Source: Eledone cirrhosa | Lineage: Eukaryota | Reading direction: 5' to 3' | Length of the DNA: 64,000 nucleotides | Assembly: GCA_964016885.1 (NCBI GenBank) | Contig: OZ024759.1 | Span: 23,126,001 to 23,190,000 of the forward strand | Shown: one piece after another, positions 7,463 through 62,467 of the stretch | Position numbering within the stretch: position 1 is the first letter of the stretch | Layout: every line of letters begins with the position of its first letter | Translations under genes and position numbers: made by a program | The notes under the pieces: model-generated | Database searches by the model: none | Seen by the model: only the letters and a program-made list of their open reading frames with translations | Told to the model about the DNA's origin: nothing

Positions 7463-7471
7463 GCTATATAC

Positions 7472-8996: not shown

Positions 8997-9165
8997 GAAG
9001 TTGTGATGGTGTTGATGTTGGCTGTAGTGGTGGTGGTGGTGTTGGCTGTAGTATTTGTGGTAGAAATGATGATGGTGTGGTGGTGTTGATGTTGGTTATA
9101 GTGTTTGTGGTAGTGGTGTTGTTAACTGTAGTGTTTCTGGTGTAGGCATTGGCTACAGTGTTTGT

Positions 9166-9320
9166 GATCGACCCTAGTACGTTTCTGGTACTTTATTTTA
9201 TCGACCCCGTAAGGATGAAAGGCAATGCTAACCTCGGCGGGATTTGAACTCAATGTAAAGGGCTGTAACATTATGCTGCTAAGCATAATGTCCGACACCC
9301 TACCAATTCTGCCAATCTAT
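9166..9320 (-). mobile_element. SINE family A
   Basis: Reverse complement of the family A consensus. Confidence 0.8.
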
Positions 9321-11061
9321 TAATAATAAAAGAATGGAAACTGTGAGCTGTCTGTCTTAGCACTTTAGAGAGATTTGGTGTTTTGGCTTTGAAACAACTT
9401 TTGGCTTTCAAACCAATAAATAAACTAACAAATACTAGCCTACTGCTTGTTGTCATAGCAACCAGGGTATAAAGCAGATATTTAGTAATTAATTAGAAAG
9501 AAGAATTAGAAAGAAACTGAAAGAATTCGAAAACCGAAGAACAACAACAAAAAAAAAACTGAAGAATTCTGGCACATATTCATTTAAGTGTGGATTTTTT
9601 TCCTTTAATCAAGATTTTTAAAAATAAATTAAATGGTTTTCAGATTTTATGTTGTGAACATCAAAGATACAAAATCTGAAATTTATATTTTAATGATAAA
9701 ATAATTTTTGTTTTTTCAAAATTGCCGATTTCTTTTTGTTGGTTTGTTTTGTTGGAGTTAGTATAACTCTGACATCTAAATAACTATCATCGGATTATTA
9801 AATTATCTAAGGAATGGATTAGATACCTAACTAATAATTGTTTCTACTTTTGGCACAAGGCCAGCAATTACTCAGTACATTACTGGCATATGCCGCAAAG
9901 GATATTGTCCGACGCTCTACCGATAACTACCAATCCAACGCCCTAACTAATACTAAAACTGAAATATAAATGAATTTGTTCGTGTGTTTTTATTGGCAAC
10001 ATGGCCTTCCCAAAATTTAACAATGTCTTTCAACACGATTTTACACCAACAATCTTTCAAAACAAATAAAATAACCAAGTATGTTTATATATAGATAACA
10101 TATATTTATAAACTTCTAATGTAAACGAAATGTATTATATACACAGAGAAAGAAAAGCTGTGTAGCTATAAATAGTCAAACTTAGTAATTTCTAAAAAAA
10201 AAATTATTTTTATACCTTACTAATGTTTATCTTATTTATCTCTAGCTTTTTTTACAGCAAAGCCTGAATTTCTTATATTCAAAATAGGAAAATAGTTAGA
10301 GGACTCTGCCCCGACGACCCTCTCAAGAATATGTGGACGAAGAAGAAATCCCCTCACTTTCTTTCATTGCTTAATAGTCTCTGCTCTTTCCCCCTTTTCC
10401 CTCTCATTTATGACATTCAGAGTCCTCTCCCCTATGTTTCTCTACACCCAAATCTGCCATTCTTTTACCCTTTCCCCCTTTTTTTCATTACTAAATTTTG
10501 TTTTTATCTTTTTTTTTTCATATGTCCATCTTTGTATAGCTTCTATTTGTAAAATATAATTGACATATGTTTATGTATACCACGAGAAAAATATAGTTTC
10601 TCAGAGTTCTTTCATCACACATCTGTGACATCACCAGTGGTGTTTCAGAAATTGTATTCATAAAAAAAAATGGAAGAGTAAAGATCCTTTCAATCATGAA
10701 TGACCAAGGCTTTTGTACATAGAAAGTTCCCCATCTGTTTTTGTGGAAAACCAGCAGTCACCCCTCTCCACGATACCGATGTTGTCCAAAGGAAAGGCAA
10801 TGGCCGACACAGCTTGGCACCAATGACGTCATACTTCATATAGACTATACACTTTATATGTCCACCATACACACACTATAAAATGTTGTCCAAGGAAAGA
10901 GTAAAGGCTGAAACAGTTTCACAGCAGGGACGTCAACACACACACACACACCTATTTGTGGCATCACCGGTTCTACCCATTGGTAAACAGCCTAACATAA
11001 ATGATGTGTATATATATATATACATATAATTATACATACACACACACACACACATCATACA

Positions 11062-41690: not shown

Positions 41691-41747
41691 ATTAAAATCT
41701 AAATACATGTAAACAAAACTTCAGCGTTCTTATCTAAGTGTGTAGCT

Positions 41748-42772
<1,025 letters not shown>

Positions 42773-42789
42773 TGAATATACGTGAATAT

Positions 42790-43472
42790 ATACGTAATAT
42801 ACGTGAACGGCAAAGCATAAACGAACTAAGGGAAAAATTAGAAATAAGAGGGATCAGATGTTTACTCGAGAGAAGACTACGTTGGTATGGTCACGTGATG
42901 CGCATGAAAGACGACAGCTGTATAAAAAAGTGCAGGGCAATAAAAATAGACGGTAGCCATGGAGTAGGCAGACCCAGAAAAACCTGCGACGACTTGATAA
43001 ATTCCGACCTCACACACTTACACCTCTCCAAGACAATGTCACTGGACCGAGATCTTTGGCGCTACACAGTAATATAGAAGACCCGCCTTACCTAAGTACA
43101 CAGTGAAACCTACTACAGTCAGTAGGCACCTCTAACAAAATACACCCCCGTCCCATCCACATCACCCCTTTCAATGTAAAATTATGTTGGTATCACAACA
43201 TCCAGCCCGAAACAAATGAGGTCGTGTAGGTGTCACGACAAAAAAAAAACACAGTCCACGCTGTAATGTGGCCGTGTAGGTAACACGGTAAAAACCTCCC
43301 AGTTCCACACTGTAAATGTGGTTGGTGTTAGGAAGGGCATCCAGCCGTAGAAAACCCGCCAGACAGTCCTATGCGAGCAAGACAACCACTCTTGCCTCAA
43401 GTGGGAAAACTCCCGTCCAAACCCATGCAAGCGTGGAATATGGACGTTAAACAATGATGATGATGATGATGA
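42790..43472 (+). mobile_element. RTE-type LINE 3' end with 3' UTR and (ATG)n tail
   Basis: [11 protein letters not shown]...[22 protein letters not shown]...GRPRKT; the UTR ends GGTTGGTGTTAGGAAGGGCATCCAGC...GACGTTAAA(ATG)n. Confidence 0.82.
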
Positions 43473-44445: not shown

Positions 44446-44519
44446 GATATTTGTAAACCGAAGTCTGAACTTGAATAAAATAAAGTTTTTTGGATTTGAT
44501 ATGGATTACACTCTGGCAG
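44446..44519 (+). CDS. NT5C2: cN-II/NT5C2-like exon: (R)IFVNRSLNLNKIKFFGFDMDYTLA, HAD motif I DxDxT
   Basis: TAG acceptor, G|GTAAGT donor, 74 nt. FVNRSL and FGFDMDYTLA are cN-II signature sequences. Confidence 0.96.
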
Positions 44520-44759
44520 GTAAGTAATATGCTAGATTAAAGGTAAAGGGTGATTGGATAGCAAGCAGGGGTTCCTCTACGATAAAGGGCCACAAATTTT
44601 CTTTTCTCTTATAATATGCAAGTGAAGTGCCCCAAATGAAAATTTCAGTCAGGGGACCCATATAAGATACTTAGAGGGGAAACAAATTTCTGAAAACATT
44701 TGGCGGATAACGAGATCATAGGCATTGTCATTGGTGAATATGTCACAATAACAAACGCC

Positions 44760-45110
44760 TAGTATACTCTCAAAAGTGGTAGTGTTGGTGCATGATAAAA
44801 TACACTTAGTATACTCTGAAAAGTGATAGGGCTGGTGCATGATAAAATAGACTTAGTATACTCTGTAATGTGGTAGTGTTGGTGCATGATAAAATAGACT
44901 TAGTATACTCTGTAATGTCGTAGTGTTGGTGCGAGGTTAAAACACTCCTAATACACAGTAAAGTCGTAGTGCTGGTGCCAAGTTAAAATACACTTAGTAC
45001 ACAATCTGTTAAAGTGTTAGTACGATGCTAAAATACACCTGGTACACTCTGTAAAGTGGTAGTGCTGATGCCAAAATAAAATGCACCCAGTACACTCTGT
45101 AAATTGGTTG
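44760..45110. repeat. Degenerate tandem repeat, unit about 43-44 bp; related array at 56110-56300
   Basis: AGTA.ACTCTGTAAAGTGGTAGTG.TGGTGC units, resembling an internal module of the SINE B/RTE tail. Confidence 0.75.
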
Positions 45111-45289
45111 ATACAACATTCAGGAACCAACCATAGAAACCACATCAGATTATGCAACTTAAGTGTCAAGACGGTGCTCTCCGACTTCTAGCATAGGAAC
45201 ATGACAGCTCCGTCCAACCCATGCCAGCATGGATAGAGGACATAAAATGATGATGATGATGATATTTACTTTTCCTTCCCCTCTCTTAG

Positions 45290-45407
45290 TATACAAGTCC
45301 CCAGCATATGAATCACTGTGCTTTGAAGAACTCAAACAAAGACTAATTGATATTGGTTACCCTGACGTTATCAAGGAGTTTAAATACGACCCAACATTCC
45401 TTGTGAG
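45290..45407 (+). CDS. NT5C2: cN-II/NT5C2-like exon: (V)YKSPAYESLCFEELKQRLIDIGYPDVIKEFKYDPTFLV(R)
   Basis: TAG acceptor, AG|GTGAGA donor, 118 nt, phase-compatible. Similar to cN-II YKSPEYESLGF...IGYP. Confidence 0.95.
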
Positions 45408-45457
45408 GTGAGAGGAAAATTCTTTGCTATTTTTTAATTTAATTTATTTTCTTTTAA

Positions 45458-45682
45458 TCCTTTAACATTTACATTACTCTATATATACTATTATATTTTT
45501 CGCAGTAAAGGCTTTATCTCACATAATTCTCACATAATTATCTCACATATCGAATCTATGAGATTTTGATACTTATTTTGAGAACAATACCTTAACATCA
45601 GTATGAGTGGCCAGTTACGGCAGGTTTGAACAAAGATGCGAGAGAAGTCTGGCCGGATATGGATGGTGTAAATGCTAAAGGG
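45458..45682 (+). mobile_element. piggyBac-like MITE
   Basis: TTAA flanks and TIR (C/T)CCTTTA.CATTTAC / GTAAATGCTAAAGGG; same body as the 27913 copy. Confidence 0.75.
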
Positions 45683-46041
45683 TTAATTCAGTTTTTTTTA
45701 GTTTTTTTTTTATGGTGCTTCATTATTTTTTGTTTGTTTTGTTTCTCTCCTCCACCCTACTCACATCCCCCACCGCTAAACAACTGTTACATCAATTATT
45801 ATGGTATTTTTTTTTTTGTTTTCTTCATTTCCCATGCTTCAGTCAAAGAGGGCTTGCAAAGGCCAAGGCAGTGTCCCTTCCTCCTGGGTAAGACATACAC
45901 CAAAATGTAAGCTAAGGAAACGTTTCGATGTGTTGCTGTTTAGCCCTAGGTTGGTTAGCTCTGAATAAACAGACCTATAGCCATAGGTATTCCAGCTGTC
46001 ATCGCAGGTCTTTTTTTTTACAGTATCATCATCATTATCAT

Positions 46042-47707
46042 ACTACAGCCCTTTGCATTCTGTGTTCACTACACTACAGCCCTTTGCATTCTGTGTTCAC
46101 TACACTACAGCCCTTTGCATTCTGTGTTCACTACACTACAGCCCTTTGCATTCTGGGTTCACTACAGCCCTTTGCATTCTGTGTTCACTACACTACAGCT
46201 CTTTGCATTCTGGGTTCACTACAGCCCTTTGCATTCTGGGTTCACTACACTACAGCCCTTTGCATTCTGGGTTCACTACACTACAGCCCTTTGCATTCTG
46301 TGTTCACTACACTACAGCCCTTTGCATTCTGGGTTCACTACAGCCCTTTGCATTCTGTGTTCACTACACTACAGCCCTTTGCATTCTGTGTTCACTACAC
46401 TACAGCTCTTTGCATTCTGGGTTCACTACAGCCCTTTGCATTCTGGGTTCACTACACTACAGCCCTTTGCATTCTAGGTTCTCTACACTACAGCCCTTTG
46501 CATTCTAGGTTCTCTACACTACAGCCCTTTACATTCTGGGTTCACTACACTACAGCCCTTTACATTCTGGGTTCACTACACTACAGCCCTTTGCATTCTG
46601 GGTTCACTACACTACAGCCCTTTGCATTCTGGGTTCACTACACTACAGCCCTTTACATTCTGGGTTCACTACAGCCCTTTACATTCTGGGTTCACTACAC
46701 TACAGCCCTTTGCATTCTGGGTTCACTACACTACAGCCCTTTGCATTCTGGGTTCACTACACTACAGCCCTTTGCATTCTAGGTTCTCTACACTACAGCC
46801 CTTTACATTCTGGGTTCACTACACTGCAGCTCTTTACATTCTGGGTTCACTACACTACAGCCCTTTACATTCTGGGTTCACTACACTACAGCCCTTTGCA
46901 TTCTGGGTTCACTACACTACAGCCCTTTACATTCTGGGTTCACTACAGCCTTTTACATTCTGGGTTCACTACACTACAGCCCTTTGCATTCTGGGTTTAC
47001 TACAGTACAGCCCTTTGCATTCTGGGTTCACTACACTACAGCCCTTTACATTCTGGGTTCACTTCACTACAGCCCTTTACATTCTGGGTTCACTGCAGCC
47101 CTTTGCATTCTGGGTTCACTACACTACAGCCCTTTGCATTCTGTGTTCACTACACTACAGCCCTTTGCATTCTGGGTTCACACACTACAGCCCTTTACAT
47201 TCTGGGTTCACTACACCCCTTTGCATTCTGGGTTCACTACACTACAGCCTTTTACATTCTGGGTTCACTACACTACAGCCCTTTACATTCTGGGTTCACT
47301 ACACTGCAGCCCTTTACATACTGGGTTCACTACACTACAGCCCTTTGCATTCTGGGTTCACACACTACAGCCCTTTGCATTCTGGGTTCACACACTACAG
47401 CCCTTTACATTCTGGGTTCACTACACCCCTTTGCATTCTGGGTTCACTACACTACAGCCTTTTACATTCTGGGTTCACTACACTACAGCCCTTTACATTC
47501 TGGGTTCACTACACTGCAGCCCTTTACATTCTGGGTTCACTACACTGCAGCCCTTTACATACTGGGTTCACTACACTACAGCCCTTTGCATTCTGGGTTC
47601 ACTACACTACAGCCCTTTACATTCTGGGTTCACTGCAGCCCTTTGCATTCTGGGTTCACTACACTGCAGCCTTTTACATTCTGGGTTTACTACATTACAG
47701 CCCTTTA
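46042..47707. repeat. 31-bp minisatellite with 26- and 29-bp variants
   Basis: Unit CACTACACTACAGCCCTTT(G/A)CATTCTG(G/T)GTT. Confidence 0.97.
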
Positions 47708-48174
47708 TGTTGAATAATGATCTTACTGATGTTTGAGCGACAACACTTGTTCATGGGCCTGATCAAGACTGACCTTGGGCTATATAGCAACAATTCATGA
47801 TAACCTGGTTACTAATCTATCATTTATCCGACGCCAGACCCCTGTGTATGTACGTGTATGTGTCTAAATGTATGCACGTGTGCATATGTCTGCGTAAATG
47901 TGTGTGCGCGTACACATGTTTGTGTAAATGTGTGTGTGGGAAAATGCATGTGCATATGTTTGTAGATTGTGTGTGCGTATGTATTTGCATATTGTATGTG
48001 TGCATGTATGTGCATGCAGTGTATATAAGGGTGTGTTACTATTTTACATCTATTTTTCCAGACGGAGTAAGTCTTAATAGATTTTTATTACAGCAACAAT
48101 TTTTACAGTTAGGTGCACTTCCTGTGTTAACTCAGCCGTGAAGCAAAAATGGTTATTTTTTTAATTGTTGTTCG

Positions 48175-49545
48175 TGTTTGTGGGTGTGGTGTTGGTGGTG
48201 GTGGTGGTGGTGGTGTTGGTGGTGGTGGTGGTGGTGGTGTTGGTGGTGGTGGTGGTGTTGGTGGTGGTGGTGTTGGTGGTGGTGGTGTTGGTGGTGGTGG
48301 TGTTGGTGGTGGTGGTGGTGGTTGTGGTGGTGTTGGTGGTTGTGGTGGTGTTGGTGGTTGTGGTGGTGTTGGTGGTTGTGGTGGTGTTGGTGGTTGTGGT
48401 GGTGTTGGTGGTTGTGGTGGTGTTGGTGGTTGTGGTGGTCTTTGTGGTTGTGGTGGTCTTTGTGGTTGTGGTGTTGTTGGTGGTTGTGGAGTTGGTTATT
48501 GTAGTGGTGGTTGTGGTGGTGGTGGTTGTGGTGTTGTTGGTTGTGGTGTTGTTGGTGGTTGTGGTGTTGATGGTTGTGGAGTTGGTGATTGTGGTGGTGG
48601 TTGTGGTGGTGGTGGTGGTGGTGGTGGTGGTGTTGGTGGTGGTGGTGGTGTTGGTGGTGGTGTTGGTGGTTGTATTAGTGGTGGTGTTGGTGGTTGTGGT
48701 GGTGTTGGTTGTGGTGGTATTAGTGGTTGTGGTGTTGGTGGTTGTGGTGTTGGTGGGTGTTGGTGGTTGTGGGTGTTGGTGGGTGTTGGTAGTTGTGGGT
48801 GTTGGTGGTGTTGGTGGTTGTGGTGTTGGTGGTTGTGGTGTTGGTGGTTGTGGTGTTGGTGGTTGTGGTGTTGGTGGTTGTGGTATTGGTGGTTGTGGTA
48901 TTGGTGGTTGTGGTATTGGTGGTTGTGGTGTTGGTGGTGTTCGTGGTTGTGGTGTTCGTGGTTGTGGTGTTGGTGGATGTGGTGTTGGTGGTTGTGGTGT
49001 TGGTGGTTGTGGTGTTGGTGGTTGTGGTATTGGTGGTTGTGGTGTTGGTGGTGTTCGTGGTTGTGGTGTTCGTGGTTGTGGTGTTGGTGGATGTGGTGTT
49101 GGTGGTTGTGGTGTTGGTGGTTGTGGTGTTGGTGGTTGTGGTGTTAGTGGTTGTGGTGTTGGTGGTTGTGGTGTTGGTGGTTGTGGTGTTGGTGGTTGTG
49201 GTGGTGTTGGTGGTTGTGGTGGTGTTGGCGGTTGTGGTGTTGGTGGCAGTTGTGGTGTTGGTGGTTGTTGTGGTGGTGGTGGTGGTGGTTGTGGTGGTGG
49301 TGGTGGTTGTGGTGTTGGTTGTGGTTGTGGTGTTGGTGGTTGTTGTGGTGTTGGTTGTTGTGGTGTTGGTTGTTGTGGTGTTGGTGGTTGTGGTGTTGGT
49401 TGGTGGTGGTTGTGGTGTTGTCGGTGGTGGTGTCTGTGCTGTGCTGTTGGTGGTGGTGTCTGGTGGTGTTGGTGGTGTCTGGTGGTGTCTGGTGGTGGTG
49501 GTGTCTGTGTTGGTGGTGGTGATGCCTGGCGGTGGTGGTGTTGAT
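48175..49545. repeat. (GGT/TGT)n simple repeat with 15- and 18-bp higher-order units
   Basis: Seen directly. Confidence 0.96.
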
Positions 49546-49777
49546 GATAAGCAAAGGTTCGATGGGAAAGGGAGAGGGGAGAGAGAGAGAATGGGGGAGA
49601 GAAAGAGGGATAGAGATGGAGAAAAAGAGGGAGAAAAAGAGGGAGAGAGAAGAGAGAGTGAGAAAGGGGGAGAAACAGAGGGAAAGAAAGGCAAGGCGAT
49701 ATATATATCAACACATATGCTGTATTATTATCATTGATTCTTTTATACATACTGTGTCTTTTTCTTTCTTTTGGCAG

Positions 49778-49873
49778 GGGTTTGTGGTTTGATAAATACT
49801 ATGGCAACCTCCTCAAAGTCGACAGCTATGGAAACATTCTAGTCTGTGTCCACGGTTTTAAATTTTTGAAACG
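49778..49873 (+). CDS. NT5C2: cN-II/NT5C2-like exon: [31 protein letters not shown](R)
   Basis: CAG acceptor, GT donor, 96 nt. [17 protein letters not shown] matches cN-II. Confidence 0.95.
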
Positions 49874-50019
49874 GTACTACCACTTTCACTATTTTTCCAT
49901 CTTTTTAACATCTTTTTTCATATTCAGCCAAAAATTTGTTCACCTTTTTAGACAGAACCACCTAAAGCCACCCTGGTTTTATGATACAAAAAACTGACCA
50001 TTTTAAAATGTTTATACAT

Positions 50020-50576
50020 ATCTGGAACCCCTATCTTGCTCAGAACATTGACCGCCTGGAAACTGTTCAGAGACGTGCAACCAAGCAAATACCCTCCATC
50101 AGGCATCTACCATACTCTGAGCACCTTGCTTCCCTGGGCATGGATACATTGAAGCTCCGACGCCTGGCAGCTGACTTGGTAAACACCCACAAAATTGTTA
50201 ACCATTATGCCAACAACAACCCTGAGTACCTTTTTGATTTCCATGTGTCTAACACACGTGGACATGTCCACAAGGTTAGAAAACAGCACAGTTCCCATGA
50301 CTTTCGGAAACATTTTTTCACGCTCAGAGTTGCTGAAGCATGGAACAAACTACCTTCATCAGTTGTTAGCTGTTGAGACACTGCATCCTTTAAGACCTCC
50401 ATGCTTCCCGAGATCCGCCAACACTACAGCTAATGTTCCCCCTCCATACACACATGTATACCATGACACTGTTCATTTCCCTGACATTTGTGTATTATTC
50501 TATGTACTATACATACACCTTTGACGAGTTGTAGTGCACCTGAGCACTTTACACAATAATTTCATTATTATTATTA
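50020..50576 (+). mobile_element. CR1-clade LINE 3' end with (ATT)n tail
   Basis: WNPYL...LETVQRRATK.IPS...TL..RRL..DL....KI...TRGH..K...FFTLRV..WNKLP. Confidence 0.88.
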
Positions 50577-50585
50577 TACATATAA

Positions 50586-50840
50586 CCCTTTAGCATTTAA
50601 ACTGGCTGTATCCAGCCAGAATTCTCTCACTTTCTGTTCAAACAGGCCATAACTGGTTGCTCATACTGACCTTAAGGTATTGTTTGCAAAATAAATAGCA
50701 TCAAATTCTCGTAGATTCGATATTATGTGAGGTAAAGCCAGGTGGTGCTATTAAGTTAGACATGGCCTGGGCAAATACTAGCCAAAACCTATCAAAGTAA
50801 AATATAATAGTAAATATAGAGTAATGTAAATAGTAAAGGG
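50586..50840 (-). mobile_element. piggyBac-like MITE; partial copies at about 51010-51082 and 60786-60892
   Basis: Same TIRs and body, reversed. Confidence 0.7.
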
Positions 50841-51144
50841 TTAAAAATTACACTGTAATTTTATTTAGAGAATTTCTGTTAATATTCCTATCAGCAGCAG
50901 CTGACTAATGAAAATACTTTGTTATTTTTTTAATTATTCCAAATTCTTTTAATTATTTTCAAAATTAATTGGCACAGTCAGTTCATTAGCAATATGGTAG
51001 CAAATGTGAGATAAATATGTGAGGTAAAGCCTTTATAATGGAAATACATTAGCAAATATAGAGTAATGTAAATGCTAAAGGGTTAATGTATGGAGACCCA
51101 AGATTTTGTTTACTGTTAACAGAGATATATCTGTTCTCTTTCAG

Positions 51145-51233
51145 CAATGAACTTGTACGTCTCTATCCAAACAAATTTATCCAGCTTGATGACAACAGAT
51201 GCTATGTTCTTAACACATTATTTAATTTAGCAG
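51145..51233 (+). CDS. NT5C2: cN-II/NT5C2-like exon: NELVRLYPNKFIQLDDNRCYVLNTLFNLA
   Basis: CAG acceptor, G|GTAAGG donor, 89 nt. YPNKFIQ and LNTLFNL motifs. Confidence 0.95.
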
Positions 51234-51249
51234 GTAAGGATTCTTTATG

Positions 51250-51895
51250 TGACTTGCTGGACATCCAGATTCGTTATCTCCTTGACCCATTTATTCTTAG
51301 GAGGGTCATGGGGGCAGAGTCCTCAAACACTTCTTCCAGAGCGTCATTCCAAGCCAGACCAGCTGAACTCATGGATGTTATCCAACCATCTTGCTCAGGG
51401 TCTACTCCTGGGTCTCCTGCCAGTCCATTTTTGCCTGTAAAATCTATCCTGTGATTCTTTCCTGCGGCAGTCTAACCACAACATGCCAATAATATCGGAG
51501 CCATGATCTCAATTTAGAGAAGTAGCGGCTCTAACTGGAGTGGCTCTCTGAGCTCCGAACTATGCACTCTATTGAGTAACATTACTCAAAAGACCCTTCA
51601 GAGGAAACCCTTTTCAGTCACTTGTATACACGATTGTATTCTTCTGTCATTATCTAAGATTCATGATTGGCGGATTGGTGGATTGGCAGTATCGATAGAG
51701 GGTCGGACGCCATGCTTTCCAGCATAGTTACGTCCCTTTACGGTCTGAGTTCAAATCCCGCCGAGGTTGACTTTGCCTTTCATCCTTACGGGGTCGATAA
51801 AATAAAGTACCAGTAATGCACTGGGTAATTGCTGGCCTTGTGCCTAAAGTAGAAACAATTATCTAAGATTCATGACTATAGGTAAGGGTTGGCAC
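51250..51895 (-). mobile_element. RTE-type LINE fragment interrupted by a SINE A insertion
   Basis: Reverse-complement similarity to 30040-30440 on both sides of the SINE. Confidence 0.7.
51667..51857 (+). mobile_element. Full-length SINE family A with 18-bp TSD
   Basis: tRNA-like head (TGGCAGTATCGATAG...GAGTTCAAATCCC), central CTTTGCCTTTCATCCTTACGGGGTCGATAAAATAAAGTACCAG. TSD ATTATCTAAGATTCATGA at 51649-51666 and 51858-51875. Confidence 0.9.
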
Positions 51896-52289
51896 AAATA
51901 CCAAACTGAAGATAGCGAATTTGGTTTTTACAAAATGTTACATCCAGAGTCATCACTAAGAGAATATAAAAAACAATGTAACTATTTTCTACACTTTTCA
52001 TGGTAAGCTGGGCTAGATTGTATGTTTACTAAAAGAAACACAAACAACTAAGGTTTGCCTTCACTTTCAACAATATCACTGACCATCATTCATTATCCTT
52101 CATTAATCTCATCATTCAGGGTAGAGGTAGACCAAGAAAACATGGGGTGAGGTTGTGAGAGCTGACCTCAAATCACAGACTCACAGAGGCGATGACAAAG
52201 GATTGTGACGTGTAAAGTGATGCTGTGTTGAGAAGGACCCATCCAACCCAAGCATGGAGAAGCAGACGTAAAAATGATGATGATGATTG

Positions 52290-52346
<57 letters not shown>

Positions 52347-52959
52347 TATATAATAACTAGAAATTGATTAACATATAAATAAACATGAATAATCACAGGA
52401 GATAATTTTTACAAGTGTGTATTCTGCGGGTGATATGGTGCATGTCTTTCTGGATATATATATATATGAAAAATAGTCGTTTTGGAAGCCTCAAAATATT
52501 CCACAACAATGCTTCACGCAAACTTTAACACTCATGTATATATGTATATACATAAACATTCTTCATCATCATCGTTTAACGTCCATCTTCCATGCTAGCA
52601 TGGGTTAGACGGTTTTGTTCCATTTGATGCGGGAATGGTCGGGAGACCATGCTTTGCTCACATGGAAGCGTCTCTGGCAGGTTTTTTACAGCTACATGCC
52701 CTTCCTAACACCAACCACATTTACAGTGTGGACTGGGAGCCTTTTCACTGTCTCCTACATGACCATCTTACAGTATATAAATATATATACTGTAAATGTG
52801 CTTGCCGTTAGGAAGGGCATTCAGCTGTAGAAAACCAGCCAGAAACACCCCTATTTGAGCAAGACACGGTCGCCCGACACAGCTTGGCTTAAAATAGGAC
52901 CTGTCTAACCCATGCTAGCGTGGAAGATAGACGTTAATCGATGATGATGATTATATATA

Positions 52960-53225
52960 TACATGATGCCTGTGTGAGGTGCACGATGCTGCATAGTAGT
53001 GAGACATGGGCAGCAACTGCAGAGGATATGCGACGGCTGGAGAGAAATGAGGCAAGCATGCTCCGTTGGATATGCAATGTCAATGTGCGTGAACGACCAA
53101 GCATGGATGTGTTGAGAGAGAAACTGTGTCTGAGAGGGATAAATTGTTGTGTGCAGGAGAGGAGACTGCGATGATATGGACATCCCGCCTTTGCAAGCAG
53201 GGAAAAGCGGGTGTAAAATGATGTT
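52960..53225 (+). mobile_element. RTE-type LINE fragment (internally deleted) with tail
   Basis: MLHSSETWA...LERNEASMLRWICNV...REKL.LRGI...ERRLR. Confidence 0.8.
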
Positions 53226-53242
53226 GATTATATATATATATA

Positions 53243-53396
53243 TATTTCGTTTCTGAATTTGTTTAGCAAGATTCTTTATCTGAAATCGTGTGTTGAAACC
53301 GATATTGTTATACTTTGGGAGGGTCATGTTGCCAATAAGAAACGCACGCACCAGATGCGTGCGTTTCTTATTGGCAACATGACCCTCCCAAAGTAT

Positions 53397-53404
<8 letters not shown>
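53243..53404. mobile_element. Short fold-back copy of the 39444-40228 family
   Basis: Perfect 49-bp arms (53302-53350 / 53356-53404) with a 5-nt loop, plus the same tail as 40169-40225; (TA)n on both sides. Confidence 0.8.
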
Positions 53405-53446
<42 letters not shown>

Positions 53447-53546
53447 ATAGTTTGTTATGTAATGAGTTGAGAAAATTCTGGCCGGATACAGCCGATTTAA
53501 ATACTAAATCACTTTAATGATACATTTATCTACCTTTTCTTTCCAG

Positions 53547-53604
53547 AAACTTATATGTTGGCCTGCATGGTTGAATACTTCTCAACCTGTACACTATATG
53601 AACA
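53547..53604 (+). CDS. NT5C2: cN-II/NT5C2-like exon: (E)TYMLACMVEYFSTCTLYE(Q)
   Basis: CAG acceptor, GTAAGT donor, 58 nt. Similar to ETYLLACLVDFF. Confidence 0.93.
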
Positions 53605-53739
53605 GTAAGTATGAAAGGAGGGGTTTTTTGGTCCCCCCCCTCCCTCACTCATCCCCCACTCTATCAGCTCTTGATAGTTGCCATTGCTTTGCCCCACACC
53701 AGACCTGATAAACACAAATAACAGCATTTTGTGTATGTG

Positions 53740-53779
<40 letters not shown>

Positions 53780-53824
53780 CACACACACGCACATGTATTT
53801 GTGTGTGTGGATATTATATACAGC

Positions 53825-53857
<33 letters not shown>

Positions 53858-54123
53858 GTCTGTATATATATATATATATATGTATATACATATATACATA
53901 TACACCGACGTGTGTGTGTGTGCATATATATATATATGTATATACATCGACTTGTGTGTGTGTGTGTGTGTGTGCATATATATATGTATATACATTGACG
54001 TGTGTATATATATATATATGTGTGTGTACATACATCGACGTACATGTGTGTGTGTGTTTATATATATAATTTATATAATATACATATATATACACATACA
54101 CACACATCTGTATATATATATAT

Positions 54124-54700
54124 TAAGAGGTATCAACTGTGTTCTGGAGAGGAGATTGCGTTGGTATGGACATGTGATGCGTATGAAGGATGACAGCTGT
54201 ATAAAAAAGTGCATGGCAATAAAAATTGATGGAAGCTGCAGAGTGGGGAGACCAAGAAAAACCTGAGACGAGGTGATAAAAACTGACCTTGCTCACTTAC
54301 ACCTCTCTAAGACAATGTCACAGGGTCGAGACCTTTGGCCGCCATGCAGTTGTACAGAAGACCCGACTGCCATTGCATACAAACCTAGTCAGTAGGCACC
54401 TCTTAACTCAATATACACCCCACCCTCACACCCTACCCCATCCTCCCTCTCCCGTTCCGTCCACTGTGTCGATGACAACAGTCCTCACTGTAAAGTGGCC
54501 GTGTAGGAGACACGGAGAAAAGACTCCCAGTCCACACTGTAAATGTGGTTGGTGTTAGGAAGAGCATCCAGCTGTAAAAAACCTCCCAGAGACGCTTCAA
54601 TGAGAACGAAGCATGGTCTCCCGACCATTCCTGCATCAAATGGAACAAAACCGTCTAACCCATGCTAGCGTGGAAGATGGACGTTAAACGACGATGATGA
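54124..54700 (+). mobile_element. RTE-type LINE 3' end, same family as 42790-43472
   Basis: [29 protein letters not shown]...GRPRKT plus the shared 3' UTR. Confidence 0.82.
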
Positions 54701-54718
54701 TATCTATATACATATTTG

Positions 54719-54749
<31 letters not shown>

Positions 54750-54756
54750 GTATTTA

Positions 54757-54804
<48 letters not shown>

Positions 54805-54847
54805 TATGTGTATGTAAGTATGTATGTATATATGTATACATGTGTAA

Positions 54848-54886
<39 letters not shown>

Positions 54887-55091
54887 TACATACAATGAGC
54901 ATCTTATCCAGATGTAAATATACACACACACACACGAGCTTACCCAGACATACACACAAAGATACATTCATATACAAAGTGAGCTTCTGAAGCAGATGTA
55001 AATATATATTAACACACACACACACGCACCCACACACACAAACACATTGGCTGTTCTCTCCATCAATTAATCTAATGTTTCTCTTCCACAG

Positions 55092-55185
55092 GACTGACAG
55101 AGGTGTAAATTACGGAAGCCTATACATGTCATATACATCCATCTTCCAAGATGTCAGGGCCTCTCTTAATTGGTTATATACTGAG
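55092..55185 (+). CDS. NT5C2: cN-II/NT5C2-like exon: [31 protein letters not shown]
   Basis: CAG acceptor, GAG|GTAATT donor, 94 nt. MSY.S.FQDVR motif. Confidence 0.93.
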
Positions 55186-55299
55186 GTAATTAAACATACG
55201 CATCTTTTCTTATACAGCCACTCCTCACTCAATGACCCTCGAAGTTGTAACTTATCTTACAATTGTGGTCGTTAGCCTACAGTTGCTAACACTCCACTC

Positions 55300-55660
55300 G
55301 TATTCAGGACATTCATATTCATCACTCCCCTCACCCAGTCACTTTTACCCTTCCTCAACACAAGACCCAACCATCTCATTCTATTTCTCTTAACAACATT
55401 CATCACTGGCTCTATTTCACTCACCCAGTCACTTTTACCCTTCCTCAACACAAGACCCAACCATCTCATTCTATTTCTCTTAACAACATTCATCACTGGC
55501 TCTATTTCCCTCACCCAGTCACTTTTACCCTTCCTCAACACAAGACCCAACCATCTCATTCTATTTCTCTTCACAAGATATATCACTCACTATCCCTCTC
55601 ATCCAGTCACTTTCATCCTTCAACACACGACCCAACCATCTCATTGCATTTCTTTTCACA
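55300..55660 (-). repeat. 87-bp tandem repeat (three near-identical units plus one degenerate) derived from RTE LINE coding sequence
   Basis: Minus-strand unit encodes NVVKRNRMRWLGLVLRKGKSDWV..., resembling [13 protein letters not shown]....WVKK. Confidence 0.85.
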
Positions 55661-55752
55661 ACCATACCTAGACATGCTCTAGGCGACCCACAGGCTGCAT
55701 GTTCAAGACCCCTGGCCTAAGTTATATTTTTCACATTGTTTTTTTTTTTCAG

Positions 55753-55832
55753 AGTAATCTAAAGAAAAAAACTGCTGACAATATAGAAAAATATATCCAT
55801 CGAGATGATAGGTTATCTGTTTTACTTGAAAG
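55753..55832 (+). CDS. NT5C2: cN-II/NT5C2-like exon: SNLKKKTADNIEKYIHRDDRLSVLLE(R)
   Basis: Long T tract plus CAG; AG|GTATGT donor; 80 nt. Similar to [27 protein letters not shown]. Confidence 0.92.
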
Positions 55833-56010
55833 GTATGTTACCTTCATTAAGAAATCTTATTGATCAGTGGAGTGTATGCATTCCAGAAACCATTAATTTG
55901 TGCTTAAAATATATTTAGATTTGCTATAGAATATTATTGGGGGTATTGCCTGTTTTGTTCCTGAGCTATACAAAGTTTCAAAGTATGTGTGTTTTATTAT
56001 ATTTTGATAG

Positions 56011-56071
56011 GATCAAGGAACATGATGCCCAGAACTTACTTATTACCAACAGTGACTACACATACACTGAT
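56011..56071 (+). CDS. NT5C2: cN-II/NT5C2-like exon: IKEHDAQNLLITNSDYTYTD, HAD motif II TNS
   Basis: TAG acceptor, GTAAGT donor, 61 nt. TNSDY.YTD motif. Confidence 0.94.
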
Positions 56072-56545
56072 GTAAGTTGTACATCTTTCATATTATTAAT
56101 TGTATATACAGTCCACCCTGGAAAGTGGTAGTGATGGTGCCATGATGAAGACCACTCAGTCCACCCTGGAATATAGTAGTGCAAGTGCTATAATGAAAAG
56201 TACCCAGTCCATCCTGTAAGGTGGTAGTGCTGGTTTCATAATGAAAAGCACCCAGTCCACCCTGTAAGGTGGTAGTTCTGCTGTCATGATAAAAAGCATC
56301 CAGTCATAGAAACCAAACCCAAAACATAACATAACATGACTAAGATGTGGACACTTGACTAGTCTAGCCTCAGAATGTGACAACCCATGCAAGCATGGAA
56401 AATAAATGTTAAATCGTGATCATGGTGATGAAGATGATACACATTACATTATACATAAGGTGGTACAACTCACCTTATATTATCTATACATCACACCATA
56501 CAGTATAATGACTTTGTACAACTCTCATTATATTAACTGTACAAT

Positions 56546-56817
56546 CGTAAGCCTCTGTGGCCCAATGAATAAGACACCAGCCTCCTAAGCCGGGGATTGC
56601 GGGTTCAAGTCCCGTCAGAGGTATTTTTAAGGGCTGTGGATTGGCAGTATCGGTAGAGGGTCGGACGCCATACTTTGATGCATAGAGTTACGGCCCTTGC
56701 CATTCTGAGTTCAAATCCCGCTGAGGTTAACTTTGCCTTTCATCCTTATGGGGTCGATAAAATAAAGTACCAGTAATACACTGGGTATTTGTTGGCCTTG
56801 TGCCAAAAGTAGAAACA
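56546..56817 (+). mobile_element. Composite retrocopy: 5-nt leader + tRNA-Arg + T5 + SINE family A, flanked by a 19-bp TSD
   Basis: ATTATATTAACTGTACAAT occurs at 56527-56545 and again at 56818-56836. Confidence 0.85.
56551..56623 (+). tRNA. tRNA-Arg(CCT), probably a degenerate retroposed pseudogene
   Basis: 73-nt cloverleaf: acceptor GCCTCTG/CAGAGGT, anticodon loop CTCCTAA, T-arm GCGGG-TTCAAGT-CCCGT, followed by TTTTT. Defects: D-loop GG changed to GA, a D-stem mismatch, and an A-C mismatch in the anticodon stem. Confidence 0.85.
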
Positions 56818-56835
56818 ATTATATTAACTGTACAA

Positions 56836-57125
56836 TGAAAGTAAAACCAAAGTTAGATATAGGTTGTTAAGAGTACTTCATTGTTTTACGAACGTTACAG
56901 AGGGTTGACTGATCATGGTAAATCGAATGATTAAACATCAGGAAGTGGTTACATTACCATCTATTTTTAGTGCTGATATTGGAGAGCAATCACTCCGTCT
57001 TTTTCAGAAACGTCTGGCGTTGGATCATTTGATCTATCATGATCAATCAGATCCTCTGTAATAATCGTAAAACAATTACGTGCTCTTAACCTATATCTGA
57101 CTTTTGTTTTATTTTCATTATTCAA
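56836..57125. mobile_element. Older, diverged inverted-arm insert
   Basis: 56836-56931 is approximately the reverse complement of 57023-57117. Spacer contains CTGATA...GAAACGTC. Confidence 0.5.
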
Positions 57126-57485
57126 AATATATATCATATATAGTTAAATATATATTACACGATACACTATTGAAGCTGTGTTCTGAATGAGAATGTTTAG
57201 ATAAACATTTTCTTCAGTATAACCTCTATGGCTTGCTATATACATATTTCCTTCACTGAATTTATTCTGCTAACAACAACCTAGTGTGAACATTTCTGAA
57301 TATCTGCAGACACACACACACTCAGATACATATACACACACACACTGATGCTCATACAGATACACCACACTCACACAGAAGCACAAAGATACACCACATA
57401 CACAACACATACATCATATACACACAGATACACACACACACAAACCCACGTAATTGAAGGTGTGTATGTGTATATATATGTGTGT

Positions 57486-57740
57486 GTCTTGTGTCCTTGA
57501 GCAAGACACTTTATTTCACATTGCTCCAGTTTACTCAGCTGTAGAAATGAGATAAGGACTGGGTCCATATCATTCCACTGTAAAGTGGTCATGGAGATGC
57601 CACAGCCAAAAAAAGCACCCAGCACTCACTCTAAATGAGGTTGGTGTTAGGAAGGGCATCCAGCCTTAGAAATCTAGCCACAATCAGTTCCTGTCCCACC
57701 CTTGCAAGCAGGGAAAAGCGGACTAAAAATGATGATGAAA
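57486..57740 (+). mobile_element. SINE family B (5'-truncated)
   Basis: Family B core and tail. Confidence 0.85.
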
Positions 57741-57744
57741 AATA

Positions 57745-57932
57745 ATTGTTTCTACTTTTTGGCACAAGGCCAGCAGTTACCCAGTACATTACTGGTACTT
57801 TATTTTATCGACCCCGTAAGGATGAAAGGCAAATTTAACCTCGACGGGATTTGAACTCAGACCGTAAAGGGACGTAACTATGCTGGAAAGCATAGCGTCC
57901 GACCCTCTACCGATACTGCCAATTCATCGCCC
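57745..57932 (-). mobile_element. Full SINE family A inserted into the tail of a SINE B, with TSD
   Basis: ATGATGATGAAAAATAATT on both sides. Confidence 0.85.
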
Positions 57933-57968
57933 GTTGATGATGATGAAAAATAATTATATATATATATG

Positions 57969-58210
57969 AATTAGTTACAACAGGGAATATACAGGTACTT
58001 AAGTTTTGTTGGATTATGCACTCCAACTCATTCAACCTGTTATAAAAACAAAGATGTCCTCCCATCTTTGTTTCTATAAAAGGCTGAATGAGTTGGGGTC
58101 TAGAACCCAATGAAACTTAAGTACCTGTATATTCACTGTTGTAACTAATTATACTTAACTCACCCCACGGAGTGAGTGCTCTTACCCTTGAATATTTCTA
58201 CCAAACTTTT

Positions 58211-58218
<8 letters not shown>
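57969..58218. mobile_element. Long fold-back insert (about 88-bp imperfect arms, 6-nt loop) with tail, between (TA)n tracts
   Basis: 57969-58056 is approximately the reverse complement of 58063-58150. Confidence 0.7.
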
Positions 58219-58307
<89 letters not shown>

Positions 58308-58337
58308 CTCTTATATTTAAAATCAATATATTTTCAG

Positions 58338-58373
58338 AGAGTCATGAAATATATACTGGAAACAAAAACCGAG
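58338..58373 (+). CDS. NT5C2: cN-II/NT5C2-like 36-nt exon: RVMKYILETKTE
   Basis: TTTTCAG acceptor, GAG|GTATGT donor, phase 0-0. Aligns with KIMTYLF, which fills the gap between TNSDY.YTD and W..YFD. Confidence 0.82.
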
Positions 58374-58552
58374 GTATGTTATTGATATTCCACCATTCTC
58401 CTCCTTTCCTTTACTCAAACCCTGACAACCTGTCCAACCAGCAAGTAAAGTGAACATAAAATGTGATGATGACAGTGATGGTGTTTAAATTTTGTTTATG
58501 TTCTTGCTGGTTCAATAAAATCCAACTGAAAGCATGTATTTAAATACCCAAT

Positions 58553-58920
58553 AAAAGTACCCAGTACATGTTGTAATATGGTTGGTGCTAGGAAGAGTAT
58601 CCAGCCATAGAAAGCTTGCCAAACAAGGGGTTAGGAGGACCCTTAGTTGTGTCAAAGACATGCCCCCCCCCCCCCATTGCTGGTGATCTACACAAAATCA
58701 CCCAGTACACACTGTAAAGTGGTTGGTGTTAGAAAGAGCATCCAGCCGTAGAAAGCTTGCCAAACAAGGGGTTAGGAAGACCTTTAGTTGTGCCAAAGAC
58801 ATGACCACCTCCTAGTGCTGGTGATCTACACAATAAAAGCACTCAGTACATGCTGTAATATGGTTGGTGTTAGGAAGGACATCCAGCCATAGAAAGCTTG
58901 AAAACAAGGGGTTGGGGCGA
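58553..58920. repeat. Tandem repeats of a SINE-tail module, period about 140-150 bp
   Basis: Three copies of GGTTGGTG.TAG.AAG..CATCCAGCC.TAGAAAGCTTG..AAACAAGGGGTT. Confidence 0.8.
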
Positions 58921-59438
58921 CTCTTCAGTTTGTCACAAAAGGCATTACAATTTCTCCTCCGCATTTGATATTACCATACATAAGTGTGATACAGACCCCG
59001 CAGCTTGTCTGAGGTGAGTAGCCCTGTCTTAGTACTGAATTGGTTTATGTAGACCCGTCCAAACCTTGCTAGCAGGGAAAGTGGAAGTTAAATGATGAAA
59101 CAATATATTTACATATTGAGGGTTCATTTTTATGTAATATGAAATCAAACTCAACTATATATATATGTGTGTGTGTGTGTGCAACAGTAAATTGCATGCA
59201 GTCTATTCTGTAAGTTGCTAGTGCTGGTGCCATGAGAAAAGCCCCAGTCAGCGCTGCTGGAGTCACAATAAAATGCTCCCAGTATACACTGTAAATTGAT
59301 TGGAATTAGAAAGGGTATCCAGGCATAGAAAACAAGTAAAAAATGGAGCATACAAGCAAGGTATAATCACCTGACCAATCTAGATTTAGTACGTTATAGC
59401 TTGTCTAACATAAGCAAAACATGGAAAATAGATGTTAT

Positions 59439-59824
59439 ATCATCATTTCATTTTACGTCCGCTTTTCCCTGCTAACAAGGGTGGGACGGGAACTGATTCT
59501 GGCTTGATTTCTACAGCTGGATGCCCTTCCTAACACCAACCTCATTTACAGTGAGTGCTGGGTGCTTTTTTTGCCGTGGCACCTACAGGTCCACTTTACA
59601 GTGTGGGCTGGGTGCTTTTTTGCCGTGGCACCTCCATGACCACTTTGCAGTGGAATGATATGGACCCCAGTCCCTATCATCTCATTTCTACAGCTGAGTA
59701 AACTGGAGCAATGTGAAATAAAGTGTCTTGCTCAAGGAAACAACACATCACCCGGTCTGAGAATTGAACTCACAACCTTTCGATTGCAAGGCCAATGCTC
59801 TAACCACTAAGCCATGTGCCTCCA
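59439..59824 (-). mobile_element. Full-length SINE family B
   Basis: Near-identical reverse complement of the 31376 and 43582 copies, with one extra internal module. Confidence 0.9.
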
Positions 59825-59912
59825 TGCTATATGGTAATAATAATGGTGGCGGCAATGACGAGAATGTTGAGGTTATCAATAACTATTACTTCTTTTACTC
59901 CTGATACTCTAG

Positions 59913-60020
59913 ACAGACAAACCTACCAAAAAATGGACAGAATACTTCGACTATGTTGTTGTTGACGCCAAAAAACCCGAGTTTTTCAAAGATGGTTCAT
60001 TACTGCGCCAAGTGGACCAG
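59913..60020 (+). CDS. NT5C2: cN-II/NT5C2-like exon: [39 protein letters not shown] motif III Lys
   Basis: TAG acceptor, CAG|GTAAGA donor, 108 nt. W..YFD...VDA.KP.FF..G..LRQVD. Confidence 0.95.
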
Positions 60021-60614
60021 GTAAGAAGATTTTGGTAAAACGAAGGCTGCTACAAAGGTGGACGTATTGTATGTTTGAGGTGAATGTTGGTAGAGAGAAT
60101 GGGAAAGAAATATTGTGATTGAGATGGATTTTGGTAGAGAGAAAGCTGATATGGATGTGGGTTTGAGGTAGATTTTGATAGATAAAAAGATGCTACAGAT
60201 GTGGAAGAAATGTGGGTTTGAGGTAGATGTTGGAAGAGAGAAGGATGATACAGAGGTGTGTAGCCAAAACACTATACATATGTATGCACAACTGTGACGA
60301 ATCTTAGAATGCTGAACTTCTATATTTTCTCACCACCCCTCCTTCCTCAGATGTGTGTGTATGTAATAATTATTTTTTCTAAGTGTGTGTTTATATATAT
60401 GTATATGTAGATGCACGCAGGTTTGTAATTCTATTGTCTATGTATCTTTCTAAATAAACAGACACAAACACACATATACTCACACATATATAAATATTTA
60501 CACACACAAACTCGCACATAATCGTAAGAGCCAATGTGTGTAGCCAAAGATGCTTTCTGCATTTTGTCATCACCAGTGCATGATGGACAAATACACATTG
60601 GCTTTTATTATTTA

Positions 60615-60722
60615 ATATCCCGCCGAGGTTGACTTTGCCTTTCATCCTTACGGGGTCAATAAAATAAAGTACCAGTAATGCACTGGGTATTGCTGGCCTT
60701 GTGCCTAAAGTAGAAACAATTA
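60615..60722 (+). mobile_element. SINE family A (5'-truncated)
   Basis: Family A 3' half. Confidence 0.8.
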
Positions 60723-61445
60723 TTTAATGGATATATTTTGTTATAAACATACTGGAATCTTGCTATGAAGGTTTTAACTTATTAACCCTTTAGCATTTAC
60801 ATTACTCTATATTTACTATTGCATTTTCACAGTAAATGCTTTACCTCACATAATATCTCACATAATCTCGAATCTATGAGATTTTGATATTTATACATTA
60901 ATTCATTTACTTTATCAATTATTCAATATACCCATGCTAGCGTGGAAGATGGACGTTAAACGAAGATGATGATGATGATGATGTCACTGAGTATTGGACC
61001 TCTATGCCACTATGCAATGTTTCAGGCCCATCCATCCATATATACATACATACATGAAGGTTGCATCTCAATTTCAAGAAGTCCAACCACCTAAACCCCC
61101 CCTGTTACACATGAGTGGCATGAACGTGACTCTTTAGCTCTGCAAAGGATTTACATTCCTTTCTGCATATGCTGCAGTGATGAATATTATGATGAATCTT
61201 GTAGCTATTACTAAATAATACATTTTTGTTATACATAATTAATATAGAAGTAAAATTCCATGACAAATTTTTCAGTATAATGAAATTTTTTCAATCCCTA
61301 TGGTAATAAACAAATGCTCAATTTGTTTTGGTCAATCTCTCAAAGAATTTTTCCTAACTACGAATTTTTTTTATCCCCCATGAATTTTGTTATAATAGAA
61401 TTTTACTGTATTTGTTTTAAATATAAATTATTGATTATTCAACAG

Positions 61446-61512
61446 ACCACAGGATCGCTAAGTATTGGATGTCACACAGGACCTATGCATAAAGGACAAA
61501 TATATTCTGGAG
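61446..61512 (+). CDS. NT5C2: cN-II/NT5C2-like exon: TTGSLSIGCHTGPMHKGQIYSG
   Basis: CAG acceptor, G|GTAAGT donor, 67 nt. TG.L.IG..TGP...G..YSG. Confidence 0.94.
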
Positions 61513-61571
61513 GTAAGTAGAAAGAATTTTAGATTAACTGCTGAGATTTGAATGTAAATAACAGTCTTCTT

Positions 61572-61760
61572 CATTGCCCTCTTATTCCTTGGAGCATCAT
61601 GAAAGGAAGAGTCCTGAAGCACGTCTTTTAGCAAGTCTTGTCAGAAGCAACTGTCTTCAATGGATCTCGCTTGATTCCCAAGCATGACCAGCCGTGCTTA
61701 TGGATGCTATCCAACAATCCTGCTCGTGTTCTACCCCTGAGTCTTCTGCCAGTTGGATTT
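61572..61760 (-). mobile_element. RTE-type LINE 3' fragment
   Basis: Similar to 44125-44400 and 51250-51430. Confidence 0.6.
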
Positions 61761-61871
61761 GAACAAGGTACAGCGCAGCCAACTGACCAGACTTGTCTCA
61801 TAAAATGGCTGACCCAACCAACCTATGCAAGCATAGAAAAATAGATATTAAACTGTGATGATGATTTTATT

Positions 61872-61910
<39 letters not shown>

Positions 61911-61989
61911 ATATATATATGTGTCTAAACCCATGCTAGCGTGGAAGATAGACATTAAACGATGATGATGGTGTGTGTGTGTATATATA

Positions 61990-62026
<37 letters not shown>

Positions 62027-62223
62027 CACTTCCATTTTGAAATGGTATATTGCAGGTGAGAGTTCAAGTCCCATGAGCAGTGGTGTGCAAATGTTTCCAT
62101 CTCCAGTATAGTTTAATACTGAAAGTATTAAACTATTTTCATAGTTAAACAACGTTGATGCTTCTAACTTACAAATTCAAAAAACTATGTACTAACTTGT
62201 AAATAATTATCTTTTACTGTTAG

Positions 62224-62446
62224 GCTCCTGTTCAGGTTTATCACAGATGATTGGAGCCACAGGAAAAGATGTACTATATATTGGTGATCACATCTATGGG
62301 GACATTCTTAAATCGAAGAAAGAAAGGGGATGGAGAACTTTCTTGGTCATACCTGAATTAAAACATGAACTAAAAGTATGGACAGAGAAGAAACCTTTGT
62401 TTGACAAAATTAATACTCTTGAGGTGGATCTTTCAAATATTTACAG
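62224..62446 (+). CDS. NT5C2: cN-II/NT5C2-like exon: (G)SCSGLSQMIGATGKDVLYIGDHIYGDILKSKKERGWRTFLVIPELKHELKVWTEKKPLFDKINTLEVDLSNIY(R), HAD motif IV
   Basis: TAG acceptor, AG|GTATGT donor, 223 nt. LYIGDHI.GDILKSKK..GWRTFLVIPEL signature. Confidence 0.97.
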
Positions 62447-62467
62447 GTATGTTGTGAGTATTTCTAA

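Follow-up and report, generated by a model that had tools for sequence, protein, structure and literature searches.

A tRNA-Arg(CCT) pseudogene and a SINE within one target-site duplication in Eledone cirrhosa: a probable single-copy chimeric retrocopy

Chimeras of U6 and a SINE formed by template switching have been described in platypus, where the partner is Mon-1, and in a lizard, where it is AnolisSINE2 (PMC4476161). In humans, 21 tRNA/LINE-1 chimeras have been reported, with duplications of 9-19 bp in the eight that were checked; most contain antisense tRNA halves, which were attributed to twin priming (PMC13174262). Whole SINE families have also gained a 5' module, as in the addition of a tRNA to a 7SL-headed SINE, of 5S to a tRNA-headed SINE, and in SINEU (PMC4494074, PMC4824008, PMC4758252), and a template switch has been proposed for the addition of tRNA, 5S or snRNA to the 5' ends of SINEs (PMC4494074, PMC4824008, PMC4758252, PMC5786205). 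Pre-tRNA retropseudogenes made by L1 were copied from a precursor template, implying recruitment in the nucleus (Schmitz 2004, cited in PMC4476161).

The locus described here lies in a 64-kb stretch of Eledone cirrhosa DNA, designated the window, and all parts of the insert are given on the forward strand. Two copies of a 19-mer beginning with ATTAT, at 56527-56545 and 56818-56836, were identical at 19 of 19 positions and occurred nowhere else in the window, as an earlier sequence-only reading had noticed. The left copy was followed by a 5-nt pre-tRNA leader, CGTAA (56546-56550), recognized by comparison with the leaders of tRNA-Arg genes, a decayed tRNA-Arg(CCT) without CCA (56551-56623), a run of five Ts, T5 (56624-56628), taken from the sequence to be a Pol III terminator copied as the 3' U-tail of the pre-tRNA, and a complete tRNA-type SINE (56629-56817) delimited by alignment with other copies and by head-motif matches. 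The junction lies at the end of T5. The right copy of the 19-mer, identified by its identity with the left one, began exactly at the end of the SINE tail, as it does in solo copies of the SINE; the duplications of 18-19 nt attributed earlier to such copies were found near 51678 and 57745. A single duplication enclosed the tRNA and the SINE, and the inner SINE had no duplication of its own. This arrangement supports a single insertion event that produced both parts, and with it the earlier proposal of one LINE-driven insertion.

As a control for chance, 19,838 stretches of 100 nt were drawn at random from the window; none shared 12 nt or more with the right 19-mer, the best match being 11 nt. 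A match of 8 nt was reached by 361 of the 19,838, so duplications of 8-10 nt are weak evidence when taken alone. Short-read contigs from two runs of one sample (X11 and X12, possibly the assembly's own) covered 56440-56604 with zero differences and the left junction is, therefore, no assembly artefact; none of the contigs listed for these runs bridged the right junction. Among the joints listed for two contig sets, possibly from the same sample as the assembly, none skipped the insert, and two RAD runs with the same species label did not cover the flanks. No empty site was seen. Four runs of other species, compared at 80% likeness, left 56464-56510, just to the left of the duplication, uncovered, and their output was swamped by SINE contigs. 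Minisatellites overwhelmed a scan of the entire window for direct repeats. Long minisatellite or microsatellite tracts occupied 7338-10000, 41700-42890 and 45950-49800, with a 12/24-bp minisatellite unit near 7.3 kb and other tracts in the introns of the nucleotidase gene described below.

The insert sits in sense orientation between exons, located within 44447-62447 of the forward strand, of a 5'-nucleotidase family gene. Of four frames tested that contain exons of this gene, three matched PF05761 (about 44447-44518, 49776-49880 and 62223-62447). On its right side is an older palindromic, MITE-like repeat with a truncated left arm (56829 to approximately 57134, no strand assigned), which was defined by its other genomic copies, about 40 or more, with 74-86% identity and most of them starting at the same position. 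This repeat begins with the 8 nt that close the 19-mer, so that the left 19-mer holds an orphan piece of it. The continuation of these 8 nt is present only on the right, which fits duplication of the target. The copies of the repeat did not extend into the left flank and provided no paralogous empty site.

The 73-nt tRNA-Arg(CCT), preceded by CGTAA and followed by T5, had been pointed out before and was recovered by both programs used, as an ARAGORN call and as an Rfam RF00005 match of 47.9 bits against a gathering score of 29. It was the only tRNA that ARAGORN and Rfam found in the window; other Rfam hits, listed by e-value, were rejected as microsatellite noise. The leader was identical in two C12 tRNA-Arg genes (L002/L003) and matched at four of five positions in two others (L004 and L005), while the start of the trailer was common to L004, which has T5, and L003, which has T4. 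Because the leader is shared with genes, the trailer is a genomic T-run and there is no CCA, a precursor rather than a mature tRNA is supported as the template, in agreement with the earlier suggestion.

Relative to the nearest genes, the captured tRNA had four G>A changes in 73 nt, at sequence positions 18, 24, 29 and 57. These fall in the D-loop GG, a D-stem pair, an anticodon-stem pair and a T-loop purine, so that three of the four are in the D-loop GG or in stems. At minimum energy, gene L007 folded into a cloverleaf and the captured tRNA did not; the insert has neither the intact cloverleaf nor the conserved D-loop GG of a functional tRNA-Arg(CCT) gene. The divergence of the tRNA part (4/73, 5.5%) was close to that of the SINE part (8/189, 4.2%), which was measured against the majority of its subfamily (14 other copies, themselves diverged by 4.1% on average). 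The two halves look equally old and neutrally decayed, which supports the view that the tRNA was damaged after insertion. All four changes in the tRNA were G>A and four of those in the SINE were C>T. Deamination of the cDNA was considered as the source of this bias and dropped, given the small numbers, the CpG context of two of the four and the mixed changes seen by eye in other chimeras.

Full-length copies of the SINE start with (A)AGGGCGG, as judged from an alignment with 36 other SINE hits, among which some copies recur in overlapping loci. The SINE, therefore, begins at 56629 or 56630 and directly touches the T-run, and the approximately 7 nt that had been placed after T5 as separate from the SINE form its 5' end. 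Base 56629 could have come from the donor, from the SINE or from an untemplated addition. An A-box-like element (56642-56653) and a B-box-like element (56707-56718) were read by eye. The head motif had 57,234 exact matches genome-wide, satellite arrays included, and the SINE gave 18 further hits within the window. ATTAT followed 86 of 103 full-length copies and, as most of its insertion sites do, the 19-mer starts with this sequence. The superfamilies considered for the SINE were MetaSINE, CORE and octopus OR/OK, membership of which would show as a shared central domain. The search gave the SINE no published name, and its motif had no match in two supplementary files of PMC4824008. In parts of the genome (C1:10316733-10343651; L016, L025, L002) there is a satellite built from the SINE head, its period based on 45 bp, and complete SINEs follow one another head to tail, each inserted into the ATTAT behind an earlier copy.

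The junction between the tRNA-Arg and the SINE had a single match in the whole genome (3.0 Gb). In a DNA search, only this locus covered both halves among the best 40 of 1,296 candidates. An exact pattern, consisting of this tRNA end and TTT within 3 nt, matched this locus and three genes, two of which open their trailer with a T-run: L003, with leader CGTAA and T4, and L004, with leader CGCAA and T5. No SINE followed the terminator in any of these three loci or lay directly behind any of the 12 distinct tRNA-Arg genes checked. Two tRNA-Arg genes, L007 and L012, had a 5'-truncated sense SINE about 100 nt downstream and different leaders and trailers. The fit of the donors was imperfect, L003 having T4 and one private change, and L004 a leader difference and two private changes. 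A comparison of the flanks of the insert with the tRNA-Arg gene loci revealed no positional homology, only short hits far from the genes. On this evidence the tRNA and SINE parts appear to derive from unlinked loci, with SINE-free tRNA-Arg genes of the donor type as candidate donors. Genes for tRNA-Glu/Asp (unit of about 1.34 kb), U6 (about 1.8 kb), tRNA-Asn and tRNA-Arg form tandem arrays (C3:277.25-277.37 Mb; C19:31.78-31.84 Mb; C4:117.36-117.42 Mb; C10:16.74-16.75 Mb).

Two parts of the sequence-only reading were not supported by these searches. It had proposed that Pol III read through T5 into an adjacent SINE at a source locus, but the junction is single-copy, the best donor-type genes are SINE-free, and the genome search yielded neither multiple copies of the junction nor a tRNA-Arg gene with a SINE directly behind it. 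It had also envisaged a tRNA-capturing, dimeric SINE that amplifies tRNA-like loci. A dimeric or composite SINE family would comprise many copies of the junction in different duplications, and one match was found in 3 Gb. Moreover, the T5 at the junction and the damaged A-box argue against transcription of the insert as one unit from the 5' promoter, as far as the sequence indicates.

Similar joins were found elsewhere in the genome. Ten matches were obtained with a pattern that required the SINE head a short distance behind any tRNA T-arm, and seven of them were tRNA-trailer-SINE joins, a rate of at least 7 per 57,234 heads of the same motif. A looser pattern gave 29 matches, sorted by script and by eye. 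Nine were bounded by duplications of 11-19 nt (L074, L075, L077, L079, L086, L088, L091, L094, which is the present locus, and L098), nine were uncertain, with a short or absent duplication, and 11 were set aside as non-chimeras in which the SINE had its own duplication or there was no tRNA. Among the uncertain matches, L081, L082, L090 and L099 may be real tRNA genes with an inserted SINE. Further joins were found beyond the looser pattern at L034 (10-nt duplication), L038 (8 nt), L041 and L053. The total was 22 joins, 11 with a duplication of at least 8 nt, all in sense orientation, the only one that the patterns could detect; antisense joins were uncounted. Rfam or ARAGORN confirmed the tRNA in 11 other join loci. 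The labels Glu and Asp came from ARAGORN, and Lys, Asn, Gly and Phe from reading the anticodon; some 3' tRNA fragments are presumably Ile-like and His-like.

CCA was absent from every join and a trailer was present in all, most trailers ending in a T-run (not that of L088). Four of the duplication-bounded joins (Arg, Asn, Lys-CTT and Asp) contained a full-length tRNA, three of them with a leader of 3-5 nt; most others were 5'-truncated. The Asn chimera L091 shared an 18-nt trailer and four of five leader positions with gene L187, which continues without a SINE, and in the Glu chimeras L042 and L045 the match to the SINE-free genes L043 and L054 ends within the T-runs of the latter. The joins L044 and L045 had a common Glu trailer, SINEs of two subfamilies, and 2 and 6 Ts, respectively, at the junction; the length of the junction T-run varied among joins with a common trailer (2 vs 6, 2 vs 4). 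Several junctions had an extra A or G. Two joins, L048 and L053, had a common trailer and SINEs of the same subfamily, 5.6% apart, and could share one donor; an exact match to that trailer was not encountered in any gene. A search for the exact donor trailer of the Lys(CTT) chimera L077 matched only L077 itself, and none was found for the Asp chimera L088 among the top loci examined. The Asn and Asp chimeras were each single among 40 scored hits.

Several of these loci had additional features. The full-length tRNA-Asp chimera (L088, 1451-1545) is bounded by an 18-nt duplication, has no T-run at the junction and is the strongest candidate for a composite that could be transcribable as a whole. 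In L081 (1431-1540) and L090/L039, the T-run of an intron-bearing tRNA-Lys(TTT) is joined to the SINE start with no clear duplication; these are either captured unspliced precursors or genes with an inserted SINE. The 5' junctions of L042 and L044 contain short re-copied stretches, in which the tRNA start or the target site is doubled, at small homologies between target and tRNA. At L079, L083 and L073, tRNA-like sequences of uncertain type adjoin the SINE, L079 being bounded by a 17-nt duplication and scoring 37 bits as a tRNA.

Matches to U6 numbered 48, mostly in one tandem array, and 14 dispersed copies were examined. In four of the 14 (L206, L211, L212 and L217), the U6 copy ran in sense into the same SINE, and the duplications measured 15, 8, 6 and 13 nt, respectively. 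Seven other dispersed copies (L207, L208, L209, L210, L213, L214 and L215) were followed by three other recurring short tails, common to pairs or trios, which are probably the 3' ends of other LINE or SINE families. In view of these recurring tails, several retroelements in this genome seem to capture U6.

The single junction, the SINE-free genes of the donor type, and the recurrence with other tRNAs and with U6 indicate that two RNAs were joined in trans, as a one-off each time. The insert also has the organization of the chimeric retrocopies of small RNAs and retroelements of the U6/L1 type: one duplication surrounds both parts and none the inner part, the small RNA is 5' and in the same orientation, it is joined by its natural 3' end, the T-run, and the SINE is present from its first base. 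In our judgement, the locus is quite probably a single-copy chimeric retrocopy, made when the reverse transcriptase of a LINE, having copied the SINE RNA, switched to the 3' U-tail of a separate pre-tRNA. The LINE enzyme would have nicked the ATTAT site and primed on the SINE tail. Reverse transcription would then have proceeded to the 5' end of the SINE RNA, moved to the U-tail of the separately transcribed pre-tRNA, and continued along the unmodified precursor as far as the 5' leader, after which synthesis of the second strand would have generated the 19-bp duplication. Transcription started at the captured tRNA promoter would end at the internal T5, before the SINE, which would explain why the chimera did not multiply.

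Ligation of the pre-tRNA and the SINE RNA, by an enzyme of the RtcB type, before reverse transcription and insertion in one pass is unlikely but deserves consideration. In PMC13174262, RNA ligation is named together with template switching as a possible origin of sense U6/L1 and Alu/L1 chimeras. It yields the same sense, end-to-end product, so that DNA sequence cannot separate it from a jump, and the location of the junctions at U-tails is in its favor. However, RtcB requires a 5'-OH acceptor and a cyclic-phosphate donor. Nearly all of the joins use the native 5' end of the SINE, which should carry a triphosphate if it is that of a primary Pol III transcript, and the tails of pre-tRNAs would be expected to end in a 3'-OH. 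The extra A or G at several junctions is, moreover, as expected of untemplated addition before a jump, an activity known for the R2 enzyme.

It is more doubtful still that Pol III transcribed a tRNA gene together with a SINE behind its terminator, that the joint transcript was retrotransposed, and that this donor later disappeared or is missing from the assembly. Two intact-looking tRNA-Glu genes (L050 and L046) have a SINE inserted in the terminator under its own short duplication, so that read-through donors are possible in principle in this genome, and the assembly, in 1,796 contigs, may be incomplete. The downstream SINEs of L007 and L012 also count in favor of read-through, but the leaders and trailers of these genes differ from those of the insert and no Arg locus of the required structure was found in the genome. 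Insertion of a SINE at the donor would, in addition, have produced a duplication starting with ATTA between the T-run and the SINE, and the present insert has none. The model would further require a different lost donor for every tRNA type and another for U6, while donors free of a SINE exist for Asn and Glu.

Two successive events, in which a tRNA gene or retrocopy came first, a SINE was inserted behind it, and the outer 19-mers are a coincidence or an older duplication, are very unlikely. There are precedents for the second step, in that the same SINE adjoins tRNA-like sequences with a duplication of its own at L073, L085, L093 and L100. Several observations speak against it here, 1) the SINE has no such duplication and the right 19-mer starts exactly at its tail, 2) an outer match was not once reached by chance in the 19,838 stretches, 3) the left 19-mer holds 8 nt of the older repeat that continue only on the right, and 4) the flanks lack positional homology to tRNA-Arg gene loci. 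Membership in an amplified dimeric tRNA-Arg and SINE subfamily is largely refuted and scarcely credible, for, although SINE families with a gained 5' tRNA or 5S part are known (PMC4494074 and PMC4824008), the junction had one match genome-wide, no other locus among the best 40 of 1,296 candidates covered both halves, and the Asn and Asp chimeras were likewise single.

Taken singly, the locus is an ordinary, dead by-product, and the class to which it belongs is a variant of the known chimeric retrocopies of small RNAs. A broader reading is put forward tentatively and with some doubt: the dominant SINE of this genome may routinely capture nascent Pol III transcripts at its 5' end. Scattered copies would then preserve, as a fossil record, the start and termination sites of pre-tRNAs from many genes, perhaps also of unspliced precursors that still carry an intron, and would constitute a standing pool of proto-dimeric SINEs. 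The filter would be the internal terminator, and joins that lack it, such as the full-length Asp chimera L088, would be founders of two-headed families before amplification.

In papers on SINE evolution, the template-switch origin of composite SINEs was inferred from finished families. The joins described here offer intermediates, which are independent single copies with traceable donor genes and involve several tRNAs and U6. They make testable the choice between a jump and ligation, and the captured terminator as a block to the founding of families. They also call for caution, since retrocopies account for some of the tRNA genes annotated in such genomes. In the mostly open-access literature searched, no paper describing pre-tRNA/SINE chimeras in sense was found.

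Like the U6/LINE and U6/SINE chimeras (PMC4476161), the joins consist of a sense Pol III RNA with a U-run, 5' of a LINE-mobilised element, within one duplication and often 5'-truncated. Unlike the U6 chimeras, the joins contain a pre-tRNA whose leader and trailer are specific to a gene, almost every SINE partner is full-length, and the host is an invertebrate. The human tRNA/LINE-1 chimeras (PMC13174262) similarly unite a tRNA and a retroelement in one event under one duplication, but the joins found here, with patterns that were sense-only, are in sense, run through the 3' end of the tRNA into the genomic trailer and have a SINE as partner. The retropseudogenes of pre-tRNAs made by L1 share the precursor template and were described as stand-alone, whereas here the precursor rides on a SINE. 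The composite SINE families have the same architecture as the joins; those families are amplified, whereas the joins are single copies, most of which keep the Pol III terminator at the junction.
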